Source: Tengunoibacter tsumagoiensis (lineage in GTDB: Bacteria; Chloroflexota; Ktedonobacteria; Ktedonobacterales; Ktedonobacteraceae). Taken from it: a DNA stretch of 64,000 nt. Both the position numbers and the translations under genes were made by a program. The DNA is taken from NCBI RefSeq assembly GCF_003967535.1, contig NZ_BIFR01000001.1:113493-177492 (forward strand), read 5' to 3'. The notes beneath the pieces are model-generated. The model did no database searches, had not been told where the DNA came from, and saw nothing but the letters and a program-made list of their open reading frames with translations. Positions 3,721 to 22,046 of the stretch are shown here, piece after piece (the first letter of the stretch is position 1; every line of letters starts with the position of its first letter).

Positions 3721-4986
3721 CTAGCAAGTAGAGCAGACCTGAAATTCTAGTGGCAGGCTGGCGATAGCGGCCTCATAAATCTCGTCTGGTGGAATGCTAT
3801 TGATAATCTCTGTCTTTCCCCAGATGATGGCTGACTCGAGCTGTTGATAGCTGTAAGGGTTCGGCTCGACTGTAATACCTCGATGCCAGGTAGTTGAAGA
3901 CCAGACACGACGTGAATACAGGTTGCCGGGCAGAAATGGCGTAATCGTCGGAATACGCAATGCACCTGCAATATGGCCTGGTCCAGTATCATTGGAGAGG
4001 GCCAGTATCGCATGATTAGTTAATACGCTCAGTTCAATGAGTGTATCCGTCTGCTGAATAACGACGCGAGCATTCTGGTTGACTCCAGTAAAATCCTGCA
4101 ACCATTCCTCCATATCCGCTTTCTTGAACCCTCCTGGGAGATTCTCATCCGGACCACAGGCCAGCAAGAAATTGAGCTTCTGCTGCGGAAAATGTCTGGC
4201 AAAATAGGAACAGAGCAAGTAAAGTACTTCATCCCACCGCTCATAACATTTTGCAACCACTACCGATTGAAAAAAACAGATAATCTGAAGCGCCTCTTGA
4301 TCAAGCTCATATCTACTTGCCAATTCCTCGTAGAGTTTTCGATCTTCGTCGGACAACAAGATGTGCGGCTGCGCAGCCGATCCATCAATCGTATGAGGAG
4401 ACAGATAAAAGAGATTCTCAATAAAATCAGCATAGCGGCGATCCTGTCCACGCTGCGCATAGCTACGCAGGCCCACACGAAAGAGATGCCCCAACGTTGC
4501 GATTGTTACCTGCTTATCCGCCAGCTCCCGCAGTTCGAGATAAGGCAGACCATCGTGCTCTCCATGAAAATCCAGGATCAAGACCGTCTTCTGCTCAGCA
4601 GTCTGGCAGATCTGTTCCGTTAACTCCTCTGATGAAATGGCAGAGGTAATAGTGATAGCTGGCCAATATTTGCTCTGATAATATGGTTCAGCAAATAGTT
4701 CAACGCTCCCTTGATCTACGACGATCTGGATGGGGAGCCCGGCTCTCTCTAGCGCTATCAGCGCCTGCAGACTCGCTTCTAACAGGCCCGTCCCTACCAC
4801 ACATTCACCCAGACGGCCCGCTTTGCCCCCTAAGAAGATCACTACTTCATCGGCAGTCTGCAATAAACATCTTGTCTTTCGTAGCAGGGCTTGCTCATGT
4901 TCGGTTAATAAACGCTCCGGCTGCACAGCCCACTCTTGTAAAAAGGTGAACTCAAAACGATGGCTGCCAGCAGACCGATCAGACAT
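3721..4986 (-). CDS. Glycosyltransferase family 9 (heptosyltransferase-like)
   Basis: The C-terminal SNDTGPGHIAGALRIPTITPF matches the GT9 donor-binding motif. GGAGG RBS. Confidence 0.8.
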   Translation of the reverse strand: MSDRSAGSHRFEFTFLQEWAVQPERLLTEHEQALLRKTRCLLQTADEVVIFLGGKAGRLGECVVGTGLLEASLQALIALERAGLPIQIVVDQGSVELFAEPYYQSKYWPAITITSAISSEELTEQICQTAEQKTVLILDFHGEHDGLPYLELRELADKQVTIATLGHLFRVGLRSYAQRGQDRRYADFIENLFYLSPHTIDGSAAQPHILLSDEDRKLYEELASRYELDQEALQIICFFQSVVVAKCYERWDEVLYLLCSYFARHFPQQKLNFLLACGPDENLPGGFKKADMEEWLQDFTGVNQNARVVIQQTDTLIELSVLTNHAILALSNDTGPGHIAGALRIPTITPFLPGNLYSRRVWSSTTWHRGITVEPNPYSYQQLESAIIWGKTEIINSIPPDEIYEAAIASLPLEFQVCSTC

Positions 4987-8010: not shown

Positions 8011-9228
8011 GTGCATGATGCATGGGGAAAGGAATCCATCTTGAAGAACATACTCCGTCTCCTTACCTCGCTATTTGCGGTCTTCTCTTTTGCTTTCTTT
8101 GGAACTGTCACACCTACTTTTGCGCAGTCAGTCACCTCCAACGTCCATAAATTGGTGTCACACCATGTGTGCACAACGATTGTCTCTGGACAGGCTCATT
8201 GTAATGCAATCCTTGTTGATAAAAATAGCAAGGGAGTGACTCCCTTTGCCAGTTCACCCGGTGGACTCAATCCGGCAGATCTTCAGTCAGCCTATAATCT
8301 TCCCTCTTCTTCTCTGGGAAGCGGGCAGACTGTCGCAATCGTAGACGCCTATGATGATCCCAATGCAGAATCTGATCTGGCGGTCTATCGAGCACAGTTT
8401 GGCCTGCCAGAATGTTCAACAGCCAATGGCTGCTTCTCAAAAGTGGATCAGCGTGGAGGCACAAACTACCCCGCTGGCAATACCGGGTGGTCTGAAGAGA
8501 TCTCGCTTGATTTAGATATGGTGAGCGCTGTTTGTCCTTTATGTAATATTTTACTTGTCGAAGGGGATAGTGCTTCCTTCGCAAACTTAGGAACAGCTGT
8601 AAATACCGCAGTCAGTCTAGGAGCGACGACAGTTAGCAATAGTTATGGTGGAGGGGAATCGTTTTTATCATTCCTCTATGCTTCATACTACAATCACCCG
8701 GGCGTAATTATTACTGCCAGTACTGGTGATTCCGGCTATGGTGTCGAAGTACCTGCGGGCTATAATACTGTTGTCGGAGTAGGAGGTACATCTCTGCACG
8801 CCAGCAGCAATGATCCTCGCGGTTGGATCGAAAGTGCCTGGAGTGGTGCTGGCAGTGGTTGCACAAGTTATGAAAGTAAACCCACCTGGCAATCAGACCC
8901 CGATTGCTCACATCGTACTATCGCCGATGTCTCGGCTGTGGCTGATCCTGCAACTGGCGTCTCGGTCTATGATACCTATGGCGTAGCTGGCTGGCTCGTC
9001 TTCGGTGGTACAAGCGTCTCCTCACCGATTATTGCCAGTGTCTATGCATTGGCAGGAAATGCCAGTTCGCTCAATGCTGCAGAATCTCTCTACAACGATC
9101 CTGGCGATCTCAATGATGTCACTAGTGGCAGTAATGGAAACTGTAATGGCTCCTACCTCTGTACGGCTGGCAATGGCTATGACGGACCAACCGGCCTGGG
9201 AACACCCAATGGAATTGGTGCCTTCTAA
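8011..9228 (+). CDS. Secreted subtilase-like serine peptidase (clan SB, S8/S53-like)
   Basis: Signal peptide, Asp region AIVDAYDD, catalytic Ser motif GGTSVSSP, and Gly/Ser-rich surface loops. Confidence 0.55.
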   Translation: MHDAWGKESILKNILRLLTSLFAVFSFAFFGTVTPTFAQSVTSNVHKLVSHHVCTTIVSGQAHCNAILVDKNSKGVTPFASSPGGLNPADLQSAYNLPSSSLGSGQTVAIVDAYDDPNAESDLAVYRAQFGLPECSTANGCFSKVDQRGGTNYPAGNTGWSEEISLDLDMVSAVCPLCNILLVEGDSASFANLGTAVNTAVSLGATTVSNSYGGGESFLSFLYASYYNHPGVIITASTGDSGYGVEVPAGYNTVVGVGGTSLHASSNDPRGWIESAWSGAGSGCTSYESKPTWQSDPDCSHRTIADVSAVADPATGVSVYDTYGVAGWLVFGGTSVSSPIIASVYALAGNASSLNAAESLYNDPGDLNDVTSGSNGNCNGSYLCTAGNGYDGPTGLGTPNGIGAF

Positions 9229-10041: not shown

Positions 10042-10410
10042 TTAATTTTCATTCCTGCTTGTGGCATAATCAGTATCCAGGGCACGTAGCAGATCCTGAA
10101 ATGCCTGCACAAGGAGATGATTGCGCAGACGATAGTAGACAACATTCCCTTCGCGCCTTGAGGCCACCAGACCAGCATCAGAAAGCTGTCGAAGATGTTC
10201 TGAGGTCGTTGCAGCAGAGAGTCCAATTGATCTGGCAATATCGCCTGAACGCCATTCAGGAAGGTCAGGGTCTTTACCATCTATCGGCAGGGCGAGAAGC
10301 TCTAAAATATAGCGCCGACTGGTATCACAGACGGTTGATAAGAATGCGTCGACGTATCTATCAACCTCTAATGGACGATGTGGCACCTTTGTCTGTTTTT
10401 CGGTGGACAT
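10042..10410 (-). CDS. ArsR-family HTH transcriptional regulator
   Basis: Winged HTH (DIARSIGLSAATTSEHLRQLSDAGLV...REGNVVYYRL). GGAGGG RBS before the ATG at 10410. Confidence 0.75.
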   Translation of the reverse strand: MSTEKQTKVPHRPLEVDRYVDAFLSTVCDTSRRYILELLALPIDGKDPDLPEWRSGDIARSIGLSAATTSEHLRQLSDAGLVASRREGNVVYYRLRNHLLVQAFQDLLRALDTDYATSRNEN

Positions 10411-10794
10411 GACATCCCTCCAATTAAGTTCAAATGGGCAGTTAAAACCATCTTCTATCCTAAACTGAGCCATTCAAAGATGCAAGAGGCCTGATCAGTT
10501 TGGACTAGAGGTACTACTCCCACCCGTGGCGATCTATCACCTCTCCAGAAATGATGATATTCTACCCAGAGGTACTATTGGTTTGAACAGTCAACGCAAA
10601 AGTCCTCAATGTGATATAATGCCGCCAAACCAGATGTTCTAAATTTGAGCCCTTTCGCTCTCTTTCCTTTTGTATGGATCACCCAGGCCGCTTAGTCTGT
10701 TTTTGTAGATGCTCTCTTAACGGTATCTTCCCCCTCTGCTCATAGGCAGTTGGGGCCAGAGAGCATGCTCTCTGGAAGAGGATGTAAGATTACG

Positions 10795-11499
10795 ATGTTT
10801 ATCGGGAAGATTGTGAAGTCGGATTCACATATCAATTATGTTTGCCAGATCTATGGCCCGCGAGAAGTGGAGATCGAGCCCAACCCCGCCGATTATTCCT
10901 TCGGGCGTTTTGTACGGATTGCGATCCGCTCTAATCAGAACGAAGATCCCAATCTCGCGCTTGATTATGCTCTTGGGCTGAGCCAGGAACCAATAACCTA
11001 TGCCGTAGGGGTGATCTATGATACGATTCTGCTCAATCCGGCCTTTGGCTCGCTTGGCCCACGCCTCTCAAATGAGACGCAGGTGGAGCTCTTCTCCCCC
11101 GATTACATCTCTGAGAAGGCTGTTCTGATCTATATTATGGTCCTGGGCATGATGGAACAACGCCAGAGGCCCGATGGGGAGGCCGAACTGCTCTCCGTTA
11201 TGCATGGGGTCCCGCTGCTCTCGCTTGAATTAGGAAGCGAGATTGAGACGATGCATGATGATGAGGTCTGCGCTTTCCACTATTTTAGCGATACGACGAA
11301 TGCTGAAGCTGTCTCCGGTGAGCCCTATCTGCATATGGGCTATCTTCCACACATTATTGCTCAACGTAGCAGCTTGCTACCAATGGTGACCCTCCGGATT
11401 ATCGATCAATTAGAACGGCTCTTTCCACAAAATCTGGCGGTGCTTTCGATTGTAAAGCGAAATTTTGCCTGGCGACTAAAAGTGGAGACGACAGGTTAG
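10795..11499 (+). CDS. Hypothetical protein, upstream partner of the HerA-like ATPase. No recognisable domain
   Basis: The frame is open from 10750; 10795 was chosen for its AGAGGA RBS. The gene ends 15 bp before the ATPase start, which fits an operon. No P-loop, SIR2 or canonical PD-(D/E)xK motif was seen. Confidence 0.5.
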   Translation: MFIGKIVKSDSHINYVCQIYGPREVEIEPNPADYSFGRFVRIAIRSNQNEDPNLALDYALGLSQEPITYAVGVIYDTILLNPAFGSLGPRLSNETQVELFSPDYISEKAVLIYIMVLGMMEQRQRPDGEAELLSVMHGVPLLSLELGSEIETMHDDEVCAFHYFSDTTNAEAVSGEPYLHMGYLPHIIAQRSSLLPMVTLRIIDQLERLFPQNLAVLSIVKRNFAWRLKVETTG

Positions 11500-11514
11500 C
11501 AAAGGAACAGTCCA

Positions 11515-13239
11515 ATGATGATCAATCAGATCCGCCAGGCCGCTGCTCAGCCTCCACGTAAACCTGTGGGAATCACAAAGGGCCCTGGTGAATCTACTCA
11601 TGAATATACGTTTGTCTCACGCGATGATGAACAGGTGCTCAAAAACGGCGAATATGTCTACTATGAGCTGCTTGAAACGTCTCTGAATGGCGCTGGCCCG
11701 GTGGTTCGCCGCGTCCTCGGTCGGGTGCTCAAACGTGTTCCTCTACAGCTCTACCCCGATACGTTTCTGGGTGAGCCCGAGGTCTCTCCCACTGAGGTAG
11801 CTGCGATGGTGGGCTACAATGCCCATACCAATGAATTGTTCGAGCTGCATGTTGCAATTATGGGCTACTATGACCACTCCACTGGCTCGTTTATCAATCC
11901 CTGGATTCCGCCACAATCGGGCAAAAAAATTTATCTCGCCGATGATCAGATGCTGACGGAGATCCTTTCGCGCAAACAGAATGGGCAGCCAGGCTCGGCT
12001 ACGATTGGCTCTCTCTTGACGCGCGCTCCCGGGGCGGTGCCGATTGTGCTCTCCGTTAAGGATATTGTCAGTACCCATATGGCGATTATTGCTAGCACTG
12101 GCGCGGGTAAAAGCTATTTAGCAAGCGTTGTGATTGAGGAGCTGATGCAGCCGCAGAACAAGGCCTGTGTGCTGATCATTGATCCCCACGGCGAATACAG
12201 TACGCTGGATCAGATTGCTAATGCACGCCAGTTTACGGAAGAGGGGGATGGCCGCGGCAATAGCTATCAGGCCAATGTCCGCATCTACAAACCCGATCAG
12301 GTGAAGGTCCGCATCTCAACGCTGAATATTGGTGATATGCGCCAGCTCTTGCCTGAGATGACTGAAAAACAGCAATATCTGCTCAGTCGAGCGCTGCGCA
12401 AAGTTACTGAGGGGAAACGCGGGACTCCCTGGAGCGCCGCCGATCTCAAACAGGCCATTAAAGCCGTCTCACGTCAGAAGACCGATGAAGAGAGCGAAGG
12501 GGCCGACGATTCCAGTACGGTGCATGCTCTGACCTGGCGCGTGGAGCAACGCTTTGAACATAGCTTTACCTTTGATGATACACAGCATCTCGACCTCCCA
12601 GAAATCTTTAAGCCCGGTCAATGTACGGTCTTACAGCTCAATGAGATCGATGAACGCGATCAACAGGTCATCGTTGCAACTCTCTTGCGCCGCCTTAACC
12701 AGGCTCGTATGGATACTGAGCGCGGCAAAGTACAATCTGGCGAGTCGTATCTCCCCTATCCTGTCTTTGTGCTACTGGAAGAAGCTCATCACTTTGCCCC
12801 GGGTGGAACAGAGGTCGTCTCAACTGCTATTCTTAAGCAGGTCCTGGCTGAGGGCCGCAAATTTGGCATTGGGGTCGGTCTGATTAGCCAGCGACCAGGT
12901 AAACTGGATTCAGATGTGCTCAGCCAGTGTCAGACGCAATGTATTATGCGTATCGTGAATGAGATTGACCAGAAGAGTGTTGGCGCTGCCATTGAAGGTG
13001 TTGGACGTGACCTGCTCGATAACCTTCCAGCGCTCTCTAAGGGTCAGGTCATTGTTGCTGGTGCTGCGGTGAACACACCAGTTATCTGCCGTGTGCGAAC
13101 GCGCTATACTCCACATGGTGGTGAAAGTAAGGATGCTCCCGATCTCTGGCAGCGCTATTTTAGTCAGGAGACACAGGAGAGCCGTAAACGTACTGAGGCT
13201 CCGCTCAACGGAAATCGGGGCTTTAATCTGTTGAGGTAA
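11515..13239 (+). CDS. HerA/FtsK-superfamily ATPase (HerA-like, DUF87 type)
   Basis: An N-terminal beta-barrel region is followed by Walker A (IASTGAGKSYLASV) and Walker B (VFVLLEEAHHFAP), then the HerA-like GRKFGIGVGLISQRPGKLD segment. Confidence 0.8.
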   Translation: MMINQIRQAAAQPPRKPVGITKGPGESTHEYTFVSRDDEQVLKNGEYVYYELLETSLNGAGPVVRRVLGRVLKRVPLQLYPDTFLGEPEVSPTEVAAMVGYNAHTNELFELHVAIMGYYDHSTGSFINPWIPPQSGKKIYLADDQMLTEILSRKQNGQPGSATIGSLLTRAPGAVPIVLSVKDIVSTHMAIIASTGAGKSYLASVVIEELMQPQNKACVLIIDPHGEYSTLDQIANARQFTEEGDGRGNSYQANVRIYKPDQVKVRISTLNIGDMRQLLPEMTEKQQYLLSRALRKVTEGKRGTPWSAADLKQAIKAVSRQKTDEESEGADDSSTVHALTWRVEQRFEHSFTFDDTQHLDLPEIFKPGQCTVLQLNEIDERDQQVIVATLLRRLNQARMDTERGKVQSGESYLPYPVFVLLEEAHHFAPGGTEVVSTAILKQVLAEGRKFGIGVGLISQRPGKLDSDVLSQCQTQCIMRIVNEIDQKSVGAAIEGVGRDLLDNLPALSKGQVIVAGAAVNTPVICRVRTRYTPHGGESKDAPDLWQRYFSQETQESRKRTEAPLNGNRGFNLLR

Positions 13240-13241
13240 GG

Positions 13242-13607
13242 ATGTCTAAGCGTCTCTCGCTCGCTGTTCTGGCTCTTAGTGCTCTGGTGTCATGGGGCTG
13301 TATTCTTCTCTTTACACGCTTTGTTCCGCCCACGGCACCAGCGGCGCTACCATTTGTGTTTCTGTTCTTGTTCGTTGCGTTCATGAGTACTGGCACGCTC
13401 GTGATTTTTGTCTCAGGCCGCCGCCTCCTGGCACACTATGGCTATGGACTGCGGCTACGTTCTGCTCTGTATCAGAGCATCCTTGTTTCGTTTGTGCTGC
13501 TTCTGAACCTGCTTCTTCTGGCCTTATACAGTTGGAGCATTGTTAATGGTCTCCTCCTTCTGGCCGGTGGCGTTATTTTTGAGGTCTTATGGCTGGCTCG
13601 CAAGTAA
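13242..13607 (+). CDS. Small 4-TM membrane protein, third gene of the HerA cassette
   Basis: It starts 3 nt after the ATPase stop, has a GAGGTAAGG RBS and is almost entirely hydrophobic. Confidence 0.55.
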   Translation: MSKRLSLAVLALSALVSWGCILLFTRFVPPTAPAALPFVFLFLFVAFMSTGTLVIFVSGRRLLAHYGYGLRLRSALYQSILVSFVLLLNLLLLALYSWSIVNGLLLLAGGVIFEVLWLARK

Positions 13608-13665
13608 AAAAAACTGGAGACGGCTGCCCATAGCTGGCAAAACTATAAAAGATGGAAGGGCAGAG

Positions 13666-14583
13666 ATGCGCATTCTGATGATCCGACCCGGAGCGCTGGG
13701 GGATACGTTATTGGTGGTACCGATCTTACAGGCATTACAGGAGCAGTACGCGCCATGCGAGATTCTCTTCGTTGGAAATACAGCGCTCCTCCCACTCCTG
13801 CAAGCCACTGGCCCGGTCACAGCAACCTTTGACTATGAGGAGCCCCGCTGGGGCCGACTCTTTATTCCCCATCATATGACAACACGCCCTCTTCTGGCTG
13901 GATTGCCTGAGCAGATAGACTGGGCAATCTGCTGGCTTCAAGATACCGAAGGGGTCGTCGAGCGCAATCTCAGAGCCGCCGCTATTCCACGCGTGACTGT
14001 TGCTCCAGGAAAACCGGCGATGAACGATACGCTCCATTGCGTCGATCATCTGGCCCGAACGCTGGCTCTCCCCGGACTACTTTCACACCAACATGCCTAT
14101 CTAGCTGATTGCTTTCCTGGAGAGGAAGATCTACCGCTCCAAAGAGCTCAGATAGCAATACATCCCGGCAGTGGTGGCAAAGAAAAATGCTGGCCACCAG
14201 CCGCTTTTGCGCAGGTTATTACAGGACTATGGGAAAGAGAGAGAGCAGTCGTGCTCCTTGGTGGTCCGGCTGAACACGAACGGGTCTCGCTGCTCCAGGA
14301 GCTCTTGCCAGTTCCACCATTTCAAGGTGCTCTCACACTCTGGCTCAACCTGCCTCTGTTGCAGCTAGCTCAACAACTACGCCGGTGCTATTGCTATCTA
14401 GGGAACGATAGTGGCATTACACATCTGGCGGCCCTGTCAGGGCTTCCAACTATAGCGCTCTTTGGTCCCAGTAATCCACTGCACTGGCATCCAATCGGCC
14501 CGACCGTGACGATACTGGCCGCATCAGAGCTCAGCTCACTCTTGCCCACACAGGTTCTCAAACAGATAGCACTTTTTGGGTGA
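13666..14583 (+). CDS. Glycosyltransferase family 9 (heptosyltransferase-like)
   Basis: GNDSGITHLAALSGLPTIALFGPS matches the GT9 motif. The start was chosen at MRILMIRPG, which has a GGAAGGG RBS. Confidence 0.75.
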   Translation: MRILMIRPGALGDTLLVVPILQALQEQYAPCEILFVGNTALLPLLQATGPVTATFDYEEPRWGRLFIPHHMTTRPLLAGLPEQIDWAICWLQDTEGVVERNLRAAAIPRVTVAPGKPAMNDTLHCVDHLARTLALPGLLSHQHAYLADCFPGEEDLPLQRAQIAIHPGSGGKEKCWPPAAFAQVITGLWERERAVVLLGGPAEHERVSLLQELLPVPPFQGALTLWLNLPLLQLAQQLRRCYCYLGNDSGITHLAALSGLPTIALFGPSNPLHWHPIGPTVTILAASELSSLLPTQVLKQIALFG

Positions 14584-20086: not shown

Positions 20087-21613
20087 TTAGATCAATGGTG
20101 CGTCGGGGGCTGCATTTTTAGCTTGCATCCATAAATCTGACCATTCGCTGATGGTATACGAATGTAATGCTCGCTGCTGCTGACGGGCCAGCTCTTCCAT
20201 GGCTTGAAAACGCCGCTTGAACTTACGATTGGCAGCCCGAAGCGCCTCTTCGGCATCAATCTTGAGAAAGCGTCCTAGCTTGGAGGCGATAAAGAGCAGA
20301 TCGCCAAGCTCTTCATGCTGCTCCTCAGGAGTCTTCGCCTGCTGAAGCTCCAACAACTCTTCATTTAGTTTTGCATAGACCTCGTCGAGATGATTGAATT
20401 CAAAGCCTACTTTTGCAACACGCTTCTGATATTCTTGCGCTACCATAAGGGCTGGAGTAGCCTGGGGCACACGATCGAGAATGCTTTCCTCAGCCAGATC
20501 GGTTCCAGCATTGGCACGCTCCTGACGTTTTATCTCCTCCCAGTTCTGCACAACCTGTCCGGCATTCTGTACTTCAATATTTCCAAACACATGGGGGTGG
20601 CGACGAATAAGCTTGGCATTAATCTGCTCGTAGACATCGCCAATCGTAAACTCTTCGTCTTGACGAGCAACCTCAGCATGAAGATAGACCTGAAGCAGAA
20701 GGTCACCAAGCTCTTCCGCCAGTTTGTCCATATTCTGTTCTTCCAGCGCCTCAACCACCTCATAGGTCTCTTCAATGACATAGCGCGTAAGGCTCTCATG
20801 CGTCTGTTGACGGTCCCAGGGACAGCCATCGGGGTCTCGGCGCAACCGCATGGTGATATAGCGCAACGTCTCAGGCAGACGCAGGGCAGTCAGTTCGTCC
20901 AGAGGAGGAACATAGAGGGTGCTGAGATGATTGGCAAAGGTATTGCGATCCAACTCGTAGAGAGGAAGCTCTAGCACGCTCTCCTCCTGATTAATACCAG
21001 CAGCACGAACCAGCTTCACCGGCCATTCATCAGGATAAAACTCGCTGAGAGCTAGCTTGACGGCACTTGCCAGACGGCGATTATAGACCTGGACAACAAG
21101 CAATGGGACGGTGGGAATAATCTTACCGCCAGCCTCATCTCCACTGAGAGCCGCGAGATTCGTAGCGTCAAAGATCTGCGCTCCCGCCTCAAACGGATCA
21201 AGCTCTAATAAAGAGCAGACAGGCTCAATAAATGAAAGCCCCGAGATAATCTGAGTACTTAATTGACGCTCACGAGCCATCTGCAAGAGATTCTGCACCG
21301 AGGTCTCACCAATCAAAGGATGACCAGGGACCGCATAGATCACTGGCTGCTGTGTAGCAAGCGTACAGACCTCTTGAGCAATCTGCTGATAGAGAGTATT
21401 CCAATCTTGTGATTCATCGTAGAGTCGGTCAAAGGATTCAATACGTAAAGTAGGTAGATCTTGTTGAAGAGACTCAACCGTAGGATGAATCAATGTACGA
21501 AAATAGACAGTCTGTTGCTGTTGAGCAGCCTGGGAAAAAAGAGTCTGAGCAGCTAGCGTCAGATCATGAATACTTCCCGGACCTAGCCCAACAATCGTAA
21601 TAGCAGCAGTCAT
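20087..21613 (-). CDS. mazG: Tetrapyrrole-methylase-like/MazG fusion nucleoside triphosphate pyrophosphohydrolase (YabN-type)
   Basis: N-terminal ITIVGLGPG methylase-like fold. C-terminal MazG motifs (CPWDRQQTHESL, EETYEVVEALEE, EELGDLLLQV). Confidence 0.9.
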   Translation of the reverse strand: MTAAITIVGLGPGSIHDLTLAAQTLFSQAAQQQQTVYFRTLIHPTVESLQQDLPTLRIESFDRLYDESQDWNTLYQQIAQEVCTLATQQPVIYAVPGHPLIGETSVQNLLQMARERQLSTQIISGLSFIEPVCSLLELDPFEAGAQIFDATNLAALSGDEAGGKIIPTVPLLVVQVYNRRLASAVKLALSEFYPDEWPVKLVRAAGINQEESVLELPLYELDRNTFANHLSTLYVPPLDELTALRLPETLRYITMRLRRDPDGCPWDRQQTHESLTRYVIEETYEVVEALEEQNMDKLAEELGDLLLQVYLHAEVARQDEEFTIGDVYEQINAKLIRRHPHVFGNIEVQNAGQVVQNWEEIKRQERANAGTDLAEESILDRVPQATPALMVAQEYQKRVAKVGFEFNHLDEVYAKLNEELLELQQAKTPEEQHEELGDLLFIASKLGRFLKIDAEEALRAANRKFKRRFQAMEELARQQQRALHSYTISEWSDLWMQAKNAAPDAPLI

Positions 21614-22046
21614 TGATAAACACATCCTCTCTGCAAGGCAGATAATAGCGACCTGGCAGGCTGCCTGTATCATAGTGATAGAGCAGCGGAACTGGCCGAG
21701 CCATAGACTCTTAAACGTACAAACAGGAGCATACCACCGTAATTTATATCTTGAAAGGCGAGAAAACCGCGAAATCTTCAGCTCAGCGGTAGTTCACGCA
21801 CATCGAGGCGATCGATTACTTGTCTCCACACGAACGCTGCGATGCTGGAAAGTAGTGTACTGATTGGGTCCCCGTCTGTCAAATTGCACACCTGGATAAC
21901 GACGGATAGACAGAGACAACCAGAAGAAGGTAACTATCGAACAGAGCAAAAACCTTAACATTGTCGAATGAGTAACAACGTGTTATGCTATTTTCGAAAA
22001 GAAAACAACGCTCGTTGAGAAGTCGAGCGATACAAGGAGGTTCTAC

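Follow-up and report, generated by a model that had tools for sequence, protein, structure and literature searches.

Does a small gene placed directly upstream of a HerA-type ATPase gene mark an anti-phage system, or does the pair serve another purpose? The question is raised by three tightly packed open reading frames (ORFs), here called genes A, B and C, in a 64-kb stretch of DNA from Tengunoibacter tsumagoiensis, which is referred to as the window and whose numbering is used throughout (Table 1). The first-pass annotation had described these ORFs together with ArsR and GT9 flanks, and all of them are present as described. It had also proposed that the trio is an inserted "novel defence or DNA-processing module". 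The evidence collected below favours the DNA-processing half of this proposal, while core synteny and the lack of a defence-island context speak against the defence half. Our preferred reading, to which we assign a probability of roughly 0.55, is that the operon encodes a HerA translocase for DNA-end processing together with an accessory subunit of HAS-barrel type; nurA is no longer coupled to it here, and a membrane protein specific to the lineage has been added.

Gene B and its DUF8166 partner

Judged by its sequence, the product of gene B is an intact HerA-type ring translocase ATPase, as had been annotated. It matches the Pfam family DUF87/HerA (PF01935) over residues 164-394 with 138.7 bits against a gathering cut-off of 23.2 (E=4e-40), and the motifs IASTGAGKSY (Walker A), VFVLLEEAHHFAP (Walker B with the catalytic Glu) and GRKFGIGVGLISQRPG are intact. 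When B is aligned with five other DUF8166-linked HerA proteins, STGAGKSY, VFVLLEEAHHFAP and the arginine-finger segment EGRKFG...SQRPGK are invariant or nearly so. Ahead of the motor, residues 94-200 are colinear with residues 94-192 of T. kodakarensis HerA up to Walker A, and the strand pattern in hhalign is consistent with this.

The best NCBIfam model for B is the DNA double-strand break (DSB) repair helicase HerA (NF040819, 2.4e-63), and the closest PDB entry is the T. kodakarensis HerA of a HerA-NurA complex (9x1l, 4e-50), followed by Sulfolobus HerA; the motors of Sir2-HerA and DUF4297-HerA score lower than these. The anti-phage HerA equivalogs give 1.8e-29 and 4.4e-23 (102.8 bits against a cut-off of 800 and 81.9 bits against 850). 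PADLOC HerA models match B (5e-46), and there are weak matches to CedD (3e-21), TrwB and VirB4-type models. Since B stays far below the equivalog cut-offs of NCBIfam (214.5 bits against 970 for NF040819 and 150.6 against 800 for NF040937), it is regarded as a distinct subfamily. It is 38-50% identical to the HerA proteins encoded downstream of DUF8166 in archaea and other bacteria, and its subfamily is associated with DUF8166.

The protein of gene A matches a hypothetical protein of Tengunoibacter tsumagoiensis (database protein P0001) with 100% identity and is a member of DUF8166 (Pfam PF26500): a precomputed PF26500 match exists for P0001 and for all 120 homologues listed, and the UniRef name is "DUF8166 domain-containing protein". 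No family match was found for A in the local Pfam, NCBIfam and PADLOC libraries, which is consistent with the earlier statement that it carries no P-loop, Sir2 or PD-(D/E)xK signature; the local Pfam library apparently does not hold the PF26500 model, the DUF8166 proteins of two other loci (L082 and L090) being likewise unmatched. A full-text literature search found no paper that mentions DUF8166, and nothing relevant came up on NurA or HerA in Ktedonobacter. The best 120 of 1,094 homologues of A are 79-100% identical to it, and those among them with an organism name all belong to Ktedonobacteraceae or to unclassified Chloroflexota metagenome-assembled genomes (MAGs). In an exhaustive search over 1.84 billion cluster representatives, A retrieved 226 clusters at E<=1e-3, mostly of 190-250 aa. 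The family is marked by an N-terminal IGKIVxSxSH...FGxFV, a conserved loop NPxFGxLGPRLS...FSPDY, and the invariant residues G118, H162 and Y183. An alternative start of A, the TTG at 10750, is unused by the homologues. Since their N-terminus is M-x-IGKIVKSDSH and the ATG at 10795 is preceded by the Shine-Dalgarno-like GGAAGAGGA, the 234-aa form is taken as the real one.

The AlphaFold2 model of A (57-sequence alignment, pLDDT 89.2, pTM 0.85) consists of a beta-barrel followed by helices. With this model, Foldseek returned 13 matches at E<1e-3, all of them HerA chains, the best being T. kodakarensis HerA (2e-6). The structure searches retrieved solely the N-terminal regions of HerA and other barrels, with the N-terminal barrels of the F1/V1 ATPases and of FliI ranking behind, and A superposes on the HerA N-terminal domain clearly better than on unrelated barrels. 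A therefore models as a stand-alone HAS-barrel protein that copies the N-terminal region of HerA without the motor. In the same searches the model was not like NurA, Sir2, DUF4297 or Cap4 and had no enzymatic fold, so the predicted structure does not bear out the view of A as an effector-type protein. The best-conserved loop (residues 81-110) has the lowest pLDDT, as would be expected of a surface that becomes ordered upon binding. The barrels of the F1/V1/A1-ATPases and of the FliI/type III secretion ATPases are fused to their own ATPase, whereas A is free-standing, ends in a predicted C-terminal helical hairpin and is encoded beside an ATPase that already appears to have an N-terminal barrel region of its own. 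One database protein, P0167, was considered as a DUF8166-HerA fusion and rejected; its gene call is frameshifted or chimeric and does not represent a Rosetta-stone fusion.

Genomic context of the pair

A genome scan with one genome per species gave 205 loci, and the synteny counts were taken from the best 80 of these, which are labelled as Ktedonobacteria or as unclassified Chloroflexota/Chloroflexia MAGs and cover the genera Ktedonobacter, Dictyobacter, Thermogemmatispora, Thermosporothrix, Ktedonosporobacter and Ktedonospora. When the window proteins were mapped onto the 80 loci, the conserved order was superoxide dismutase (SOD, minus strand), response regulator (plus), ArsR (minus), A, B, C, GT9, P260, MoxR and DUF58. 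The median identities to the window proteins are 77% for A, 82% for B, 40% for C, 44% for GT9, 78% for SOD and 77% for MoxR; A and B are thus conserved at the level of SOD and MoxR. All three are genuine coding genes: for each of A, B and C the protein is conserved in about 70-80 independent genomes. The GC content has no step at the borders of the trio. Neither mobile nor defence genes are present in the first 28 kb of the window, where the genes encode an iron permease, a kinase, a major facilitator superfamily transporter, SOD, citrate synthase, glycosyltransferases and a GH2 hydrolase. In the class Ktedonobacteria, A-B-C is thus a core operon that has been inherited vertically. Because of the class-wide synteny, the SOD-like conservation, the smooth GC content and the absence of mobile or defence neighbours, the reading of the trio as an inserted module fails; its flanks are syntenic with it in the 80 loci.

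More distant members of DUF8166 occur in other Chloroflexota, in the archaea Halobellus, Haloarcula, Haloplanus and Natrinema, and in MAGs labelled Nanohaloarchaea, Thermoplasmata and Hadarchaeota. The metagenome survey comprised 79 independent loci of the short-form DUF8166 family, and the denominators given here are the informative loci. HerA lies directly downstream on the same strand in 42 of 46 loci. NurA is directly upstream in 18/41 and anywhere in the locus in 23/41, while Mre11, Rad50 and NurA are all present in 8 of 20. DUF8166 thus has HerA as a near-obligate partner, and its commonest neighbours are the end-resection genes for NurA, Mre11 and Rad50. The suggestion that gene A is a dedicated, previously unrecognised partner of HerA is upheld. 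The spacing between A and B is 15 bp in the window; in several lineages the two genes overlap by 1-4 nt, that is, they are translationally coupled, and across the distant lineages their pairwise identities co-vary (r=0.97). In both bacteria and archaea the two genes stay side by side and are inherited together, often with translational coupling. Small ORFs intervene in some loci, as in L150, where an unrelated ORF of 126 aa (8617-8997) is inserted between DUF8166 and herA, and gaps of 670-1000 nt are likewise found in L147, L166, L148, L164 and L127; the pair thus tolerates insertion without separating. By eye, the inserted ORF of L150 resembles a DUF433/toxin-antitoxin-type protein.

In many lineages the DUF8166-herA pair is the distal end of an mre11-rad50-nurA-DUF8166-herA operon. 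The order Metallophos (Mre11)-Rad50-NurA-DUF8166-HerA is found in Haloplanus halobius, in Salinirubellus and in a MAG labelled Hadarchaeota, and for Haloplanus it was confirmed by the Rad50 zinc hook, the NurA domain and the Mre11-type phosphoesterase. Plasmid unnamed4 of Natrinema zhouii (L091, NZ_CP084885.1, 183086-190958) carries the full metallophosphoesterase-SMC ATPase-NurA-DUF8166-HerA operon, and some 5.5 kb downstream comes a second pair, "DNA repair exonuclease + AAA ATPase". In marine Chloroflexota the five-gene operon lies beside the genes for ribosomal protein L25, rimM, trmD and groEL, and in a MAG labelled Stenomitos (cyanobacterium) nurA is two genes 5' of DUF8166-herA. An Anaerolineales MAG (L089, 2499-8227) has mre11-rad50-nurA with no herA or DUF8166 within 7 kb downstream, which shows that some Chloroflexota have the five-gene operon in split form and makes such a split plausible in Ktedonobacteria.

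Gene C, the proposed mechanism and its rivals

Gene C encodes a hydrophobic protein, as had been noted, with a grand average of hydropathy (GRAVY) of 1.33 and four hydrophobic segments that are predicted to be transmembrane (TM). It follows B in every Ktedonobacteria locus with enough 3' sequence, 67 of them by tblastn and 4 by ORF inspection, the latter four having a GRAVY >1 and a C-terminal EVLxLARK motif. In the window, 2 nt separate the stop of B from the start of C, and the GAGG Shine-Dalgarno sequence of C is within the 3' end of B; across the loci the B-C gap is usually -4 to about 100 nt, and C is kept beside B even in loci that lack GT9 or have it about 0.8-1 kb further away. The alignment of C contains the motifs AW..L..FT, NL.L.ALHSW and E.L.LARK, with conserved polar residues (N, HSW, E) in or around the predicted TM segments and a basic loop. 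No family in Pfam, NCBIfam or PADLOC matches C, it has no detectable similarity to FtsK TM domains or CedA, and the survey of metagenomic loci revealed no C-like gene beside HerA outside Ktedonobacteria. Its single-sequence AlphaFold2 model is all-helical and of low confidence (pTM 0.47). The rate of evolution of C is like that of the neighbouring envelope genes and far above that of A and B, which argues against C as a tight core subunit; its strict linkage to B suggests a role in tethering or modulation at the membrane.

In the mechanism that we propose, A would be a stoichiometric accessory subunit that assembles at the HAS-barrel face of the HerA hexamer, either directly on it or beside it; this is the NurA-docking face in the solved HerA-NurA complexes. 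As an adaptor or gate it could control how the nuclease docks and how DNA enters, or as a decoy it could keep NurA away from the motor. Together, A and B would translocate or unwind DNA ends so that these can be resected during recombinational repair. In Ktedonobacteria their nuclease partner would be encoded elsewhere in the genome, and C would hold part of the complex at the membrane or modulate it there, or might simply be co-expressed. We prefer this reading because of the core synteny, the housekeeping surroundings, the closeness of B to the DSB-repair HerA and the mre11-rad50-nurA operon context elsewhere, and also because of the HerA and NurA linkage in metagenomes, the translational coupling, the co-divergence, and the acidity and conserved loop of A. 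In Deinococcus HerA-NurA, the HAS barrels of HerA form a ring and bind NurA through an acidic surface (PMC9960219), and the acidic A (pI 4.8) was counted for the proposal on this ground.

When compared to the Mre11-Rad50-NurA-HerA system of archaea and the NurA-HerA of Deinococcus, B shares the catalytic motifs and, as predicted, the domain order of HerA, its best family and PDB matches are repair-type HerA proteins, and its closest relatives are encoded in mre11-rad50-nurA-...-herA operons. The differences are the extra DUF8166 gene just upstream of herA, the absence of nurA, mre11 and rad50 from the operon and from the 64 kb around it, the presence of a four-TM protein, and the scores of B below the NCBIfam equivalog cut-offs. 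No DUF8166-like subunit is present in the matched solved HerA and HerA-NurA entries of Sulfolobus, Thermococcus and Deinococcus, nor in the Deinococcus paper (PMC9960219).

Several observations weigh against our proposal. The kinship of A with HerA rests on the predicted fold, because similarity at the sequence level is not significant: hhalign gave a probability of 5%, with A aligned colinear with residues 35-155 of B, and a profile search of A against PDB sequences gave no match. With tblastn, no similarity to NurA, Mre11 or Rad50 was found anywhere in the window, and the best 120 of 1,023 matches to a Chloroflexota NurA query include neither named Ktedonobacteria nor the sampled Ktedonobacteria contigs. 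Linkage to HerA also has exceptions, namely an orphan DUF8166 gene (L087/L088, 8001-8597, 198 aa) that has no HerA within 8 kb on either side, and four loci (L121, L151, L152 and L160) with no HerA directly 3' of DUF8166. Around the orphan lie envelope and division genes (Mur ligase, DivIC, PMT_2 glycosyltransferases) and an ECF sigma factor gene. The haloarchaeal DUF8166 operons are often on plasmids or beside pAgo- or OLD-like genes, and the ancestral role could thus include defence. Finally, the strict linkage of C and the frequent GT9 neighbour hint at a membrane role, which pure end-resection does not explain.

This last point leads to the main rival, a fairly improbable one in our estimate, in which C recruits the HerA/DUF8166 pair as a membrane-associated DNA pump, that is, an FtsK/SpoIIIE- or Ced/Tdt-like translocase that acts at septa, in spores or between cells and is independent of NurA. 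Ktedonobacteria are mycelial, spore-forming bacteria, C is coupled to B class-wide and kept when GT9 is lost, neither the operon nor the window has a nuclease gene, and the operon often runs on into the envelope genes GT9 and P260. HerA is itself a member of the FtsK-HerA superfamily; the combination of such an ATPase with a membrane component resembles FtsK/SpoIIIE, archaeal Ced and Thermus TdtA, and B has weak matches to CedD and the conjugative ATPases. According to a review of morphogenesis, the HerA-clade proteins Sll0284, Synpcc7942_0981 and Alr3799 are the only FtsK relatives in model cyanobacteria (PMC7766704); Sll0284 of Synechocystis is a 579-aa DUF87 protein with a HAS barrel, found in a Grad-seq group of proteins conserved among cyanobacteria (PMC8136920). 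On the other hand, the membrane part here is a separate 121-aa protein that evolves far faster than A and B, which argues against a tight three-way complex, and B has no similarity to the TM or gamma domain of FtsK. The nearest relatives of B are in nurA/mre11/rad50 operons without a C-like protein, and B is much closer to NurA-type HerA than to the pumps, with the DSB-repair HerA scoring much above CedD and the conjugative ATPases. The tie between B and C is one of genetic linkage, and the membrane anchoring is predicted. Another improbable rival makes A a negative regulator instead of a structural subunit: as a HAS-barrel decoy that mimics the acidic NurA-docking surface of HerA, it would keep NurA sequestered, or the HerA pore capped, as long as no DNA damage occurs. 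A does share its predicted fold with the domain through which HerA binds NurA, has the acidity of that surface, and sits between nurA and herA in the five-gene operons; but it is kept at 77% identity beside HerA in Ktedonobacteria, where nurA is not adjacent, and its linkage follows HerA rather than NurA (42/46 against 18/41).

Very improbable, to our judgement, is anti-phage defence, with A as a new HerA-activated effector or sensor, as in Sir2-HerA (Nezha) and DUF4297-HerA, and C as a membrane-disrupting effector. In those two systems the upstream partner docks on the HAS-barrel face of HerA. A smaller partner gene followed directly by HerA resembles their gene order, and the PADLOC HerA models do match B. 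Haloarchaea provide the other argument, since their DUF8166 operons occur on plasmids or in integrated conjugative regions beside pAgo-like, OLD-like and Schlafen-type helicase genes. In the chromosome of Haloplanus halobius (L082, 413-16618), the operon is preceded by a 762-aa pAgo-like protein, whose Piwi (3e-5) and MID (7e-4) matches are both below the Pfam cut-offs, and is followed by an OLD-like AAA_15/TOPRIM protein and then by TrwB-, DUF8128- and TraC-like conjugation genes; this context is that of an integrated element or defence island, unlike the Ktedonobacteria locus. DUF8166 is also on plasmids of Halobaculum marinum, halophilic archaeon DL31 and Halorussus salilacus, and one cluster at 90% identity bears the labels Halobellus, Haloarcula and Nanohaloarchaea, a mixture that suggests recent horizontal transfer. 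In Ktedonobacteria, by contrast, the module is core and syntenic, not patchy or in islands, and has metabolic flanks, and in marine Chloroflexota the operon lies amid ribosomal and tRNA-modification genes. A is no Sir2, DUF4297, nuclease or NADase and models as a copy of the HerA barrel, no relatives were found among 2.9 million viral contigs, and PADLOC, a check suggested in the first-pass annotation, matches B alone of the trio and neither A nor C. B scores best against the DSB-repair HerA models and lower against the anti-phage equivalogs (2.4e-63 against 1.8e-29), and the likeness in gene order which the first-pass annotation had stressed is coincidental. That annotation had also named beforehand what would speak against it, a core synteny across the lineage without defence-island context, and this is what was found in Ktedonobacteria. 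Because of this synteny and the metabolic neighbours the defence-island reading fails, and defence is unlikely for the Ktedonobacteria lineage. The HerA part is of a known kind and the DUF8166 accessory subunit is uncharacterised; the finding is not a new defence system.

The reading of A as an accessory subunit of HerA can be taken further, and we do so tentatively. DUF8166 may be a ring-forming HAS-barrel subunit that is stacked on the HerA hexamer and controls both the partner (NurA, or C in Ktedonobacteria) and DNA entry, and it would then define a widespread class of HerA in Chloroflexota, cyanobacteria-like lineages, haloarchaea and other archaea. In Ktedonobacteria, such a two-ring motor would have been detached from Mre11-Rad50-NurA and rewired to the membrane for nuclease-independent DNA handling.

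Putative promoter element, neighbouring genes and significance

Table 1. Positions of the operon, its putative promoter element and neighbouring genes in the 64-kb window.
Feature	Position	Strand	Description
Gene A	10795 (ATG) to 11499	+	234 aa, pI 4.8, DUF8166; modelled barrel residues 1-152 and C-terminal helices 155-233; without ATPase domain
Gene B	11515-13239	+	574 aa, HerA-type hexameric DNA translocase ATPase by sequence; putative N-terminal barrel region, RecA-like core, Walker A/B, arginine finger
Gene C	13242-13607	+	121 aa, basic, pI 11, four predicted TM segments; Ktedonobacteria-specific, translationally coupled to B
Promoter-proximal element TGTGATATAATGCCGCCAAACCAGATGTTCTAA	10610-10642	+	extended -10 box plus about 20 nt downstream
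ArsR/SmtB-type helix-turn-helix (HTH) regulator	10042-10473	-	Pfam HTH_5 7e-8; divergent from A
GT9 glycosyltransferase	real start about 13666, to 14583	+	Pfam Glyco_transf_9 7.8e-24
P260	14707-15489	+	Pro/Thr-rich protein
Second GT9-family gene	3721-4986	-	
TP_methylase-MazG-PRA-PH protein	20087-21673	-	528 aa

Upstream of A lies a conserved, putative promoter element whose sequence form is a TATAATGCCGCCAAACCATTTGTTCTAA-like site. Its 33-nt consensus, TGTGTTATAATGCCGCCAAACCATTTGTTCTAA, comprises an extended -10 box, a GC-rich discriminator and about 15 nt more, and is identical (100%) in 13 loci of several genera. In an ungapped search of L001-L081, the element was found once per locus, always 5' of A, in 26 genome loci and the window, within whose 64 kb it is unique. 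It lies 21 to 180 nt from the ATG, in intergenic DNA that is otherwise unalignable. Probably it combines the promoter from which A-B-C is transcribed with an operator or a 5'-leader element. No RNA family of Rfam was found within 10300-13800. A LexA box was also considered. The known LexA motifs are GAAC-N4-GTTC and, in cyanobacteria, RGTAC-N3-DGTWCB; the GTTC half-site alone fits while the left half and the spacing do not, and the assignment was rejected as unproven. The ArsR gene, upstream of A on the opposite strand, was detected in 31 loci and is a weak candidate for the operon regulator by its position alone. A role as operator-binding regulator is weakened by locus L001, which has hicAB in place of arsR with the element unchanged.

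Downstream of the operon, GT9 was detected in 49 loci; in four of them it is about 800-1,050 nt 3' of C, and in others it was not found after C. The C-GT9 interval of the window has no clear terminator. GT9 is hence the usual downstream neighbour, outside the invariant unit, and may be co-transcribed with A-B-C. The family classically contains lipopolysaccharide heptosyltransferases, and with the second GT9-family gene there are two GT9 genes within 10 kb. P260 is conserved, and its sequence suggests a membrane anchor. These genes hint at an envelope-glycosylation locus conserved next to the HerA operon. Further along the window, a 528-aa protein combines a tetrapyrrole-methylase-like domain (TP_methylase) with MazG and PRA-PH pyrophosphohydrolase domains.

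In archaea and bacteria, HerA-NurA corresponds to the helicase-nuclease machines of end resection; HerA is also the motor of several recently solved anti-phage systems, and in both settings the HAS-barrel face of HerA is the docking site of its partners. A free-standing copy of this barrel, as A is modelled, upstream of a specific HerA subfamily and often between nurA and herA, suggests an extra layer of assembly or regulation. For annotation, our results caution that gene order alone is insufficient to call pairs of a small gene and HerA defence systems. For Ktedonobacteria, they point to a core and strongly conserved DNA-handling operon with a predicted membrane component and a strikingly conserved putative promoter element, whose regulation and function are directly testable.

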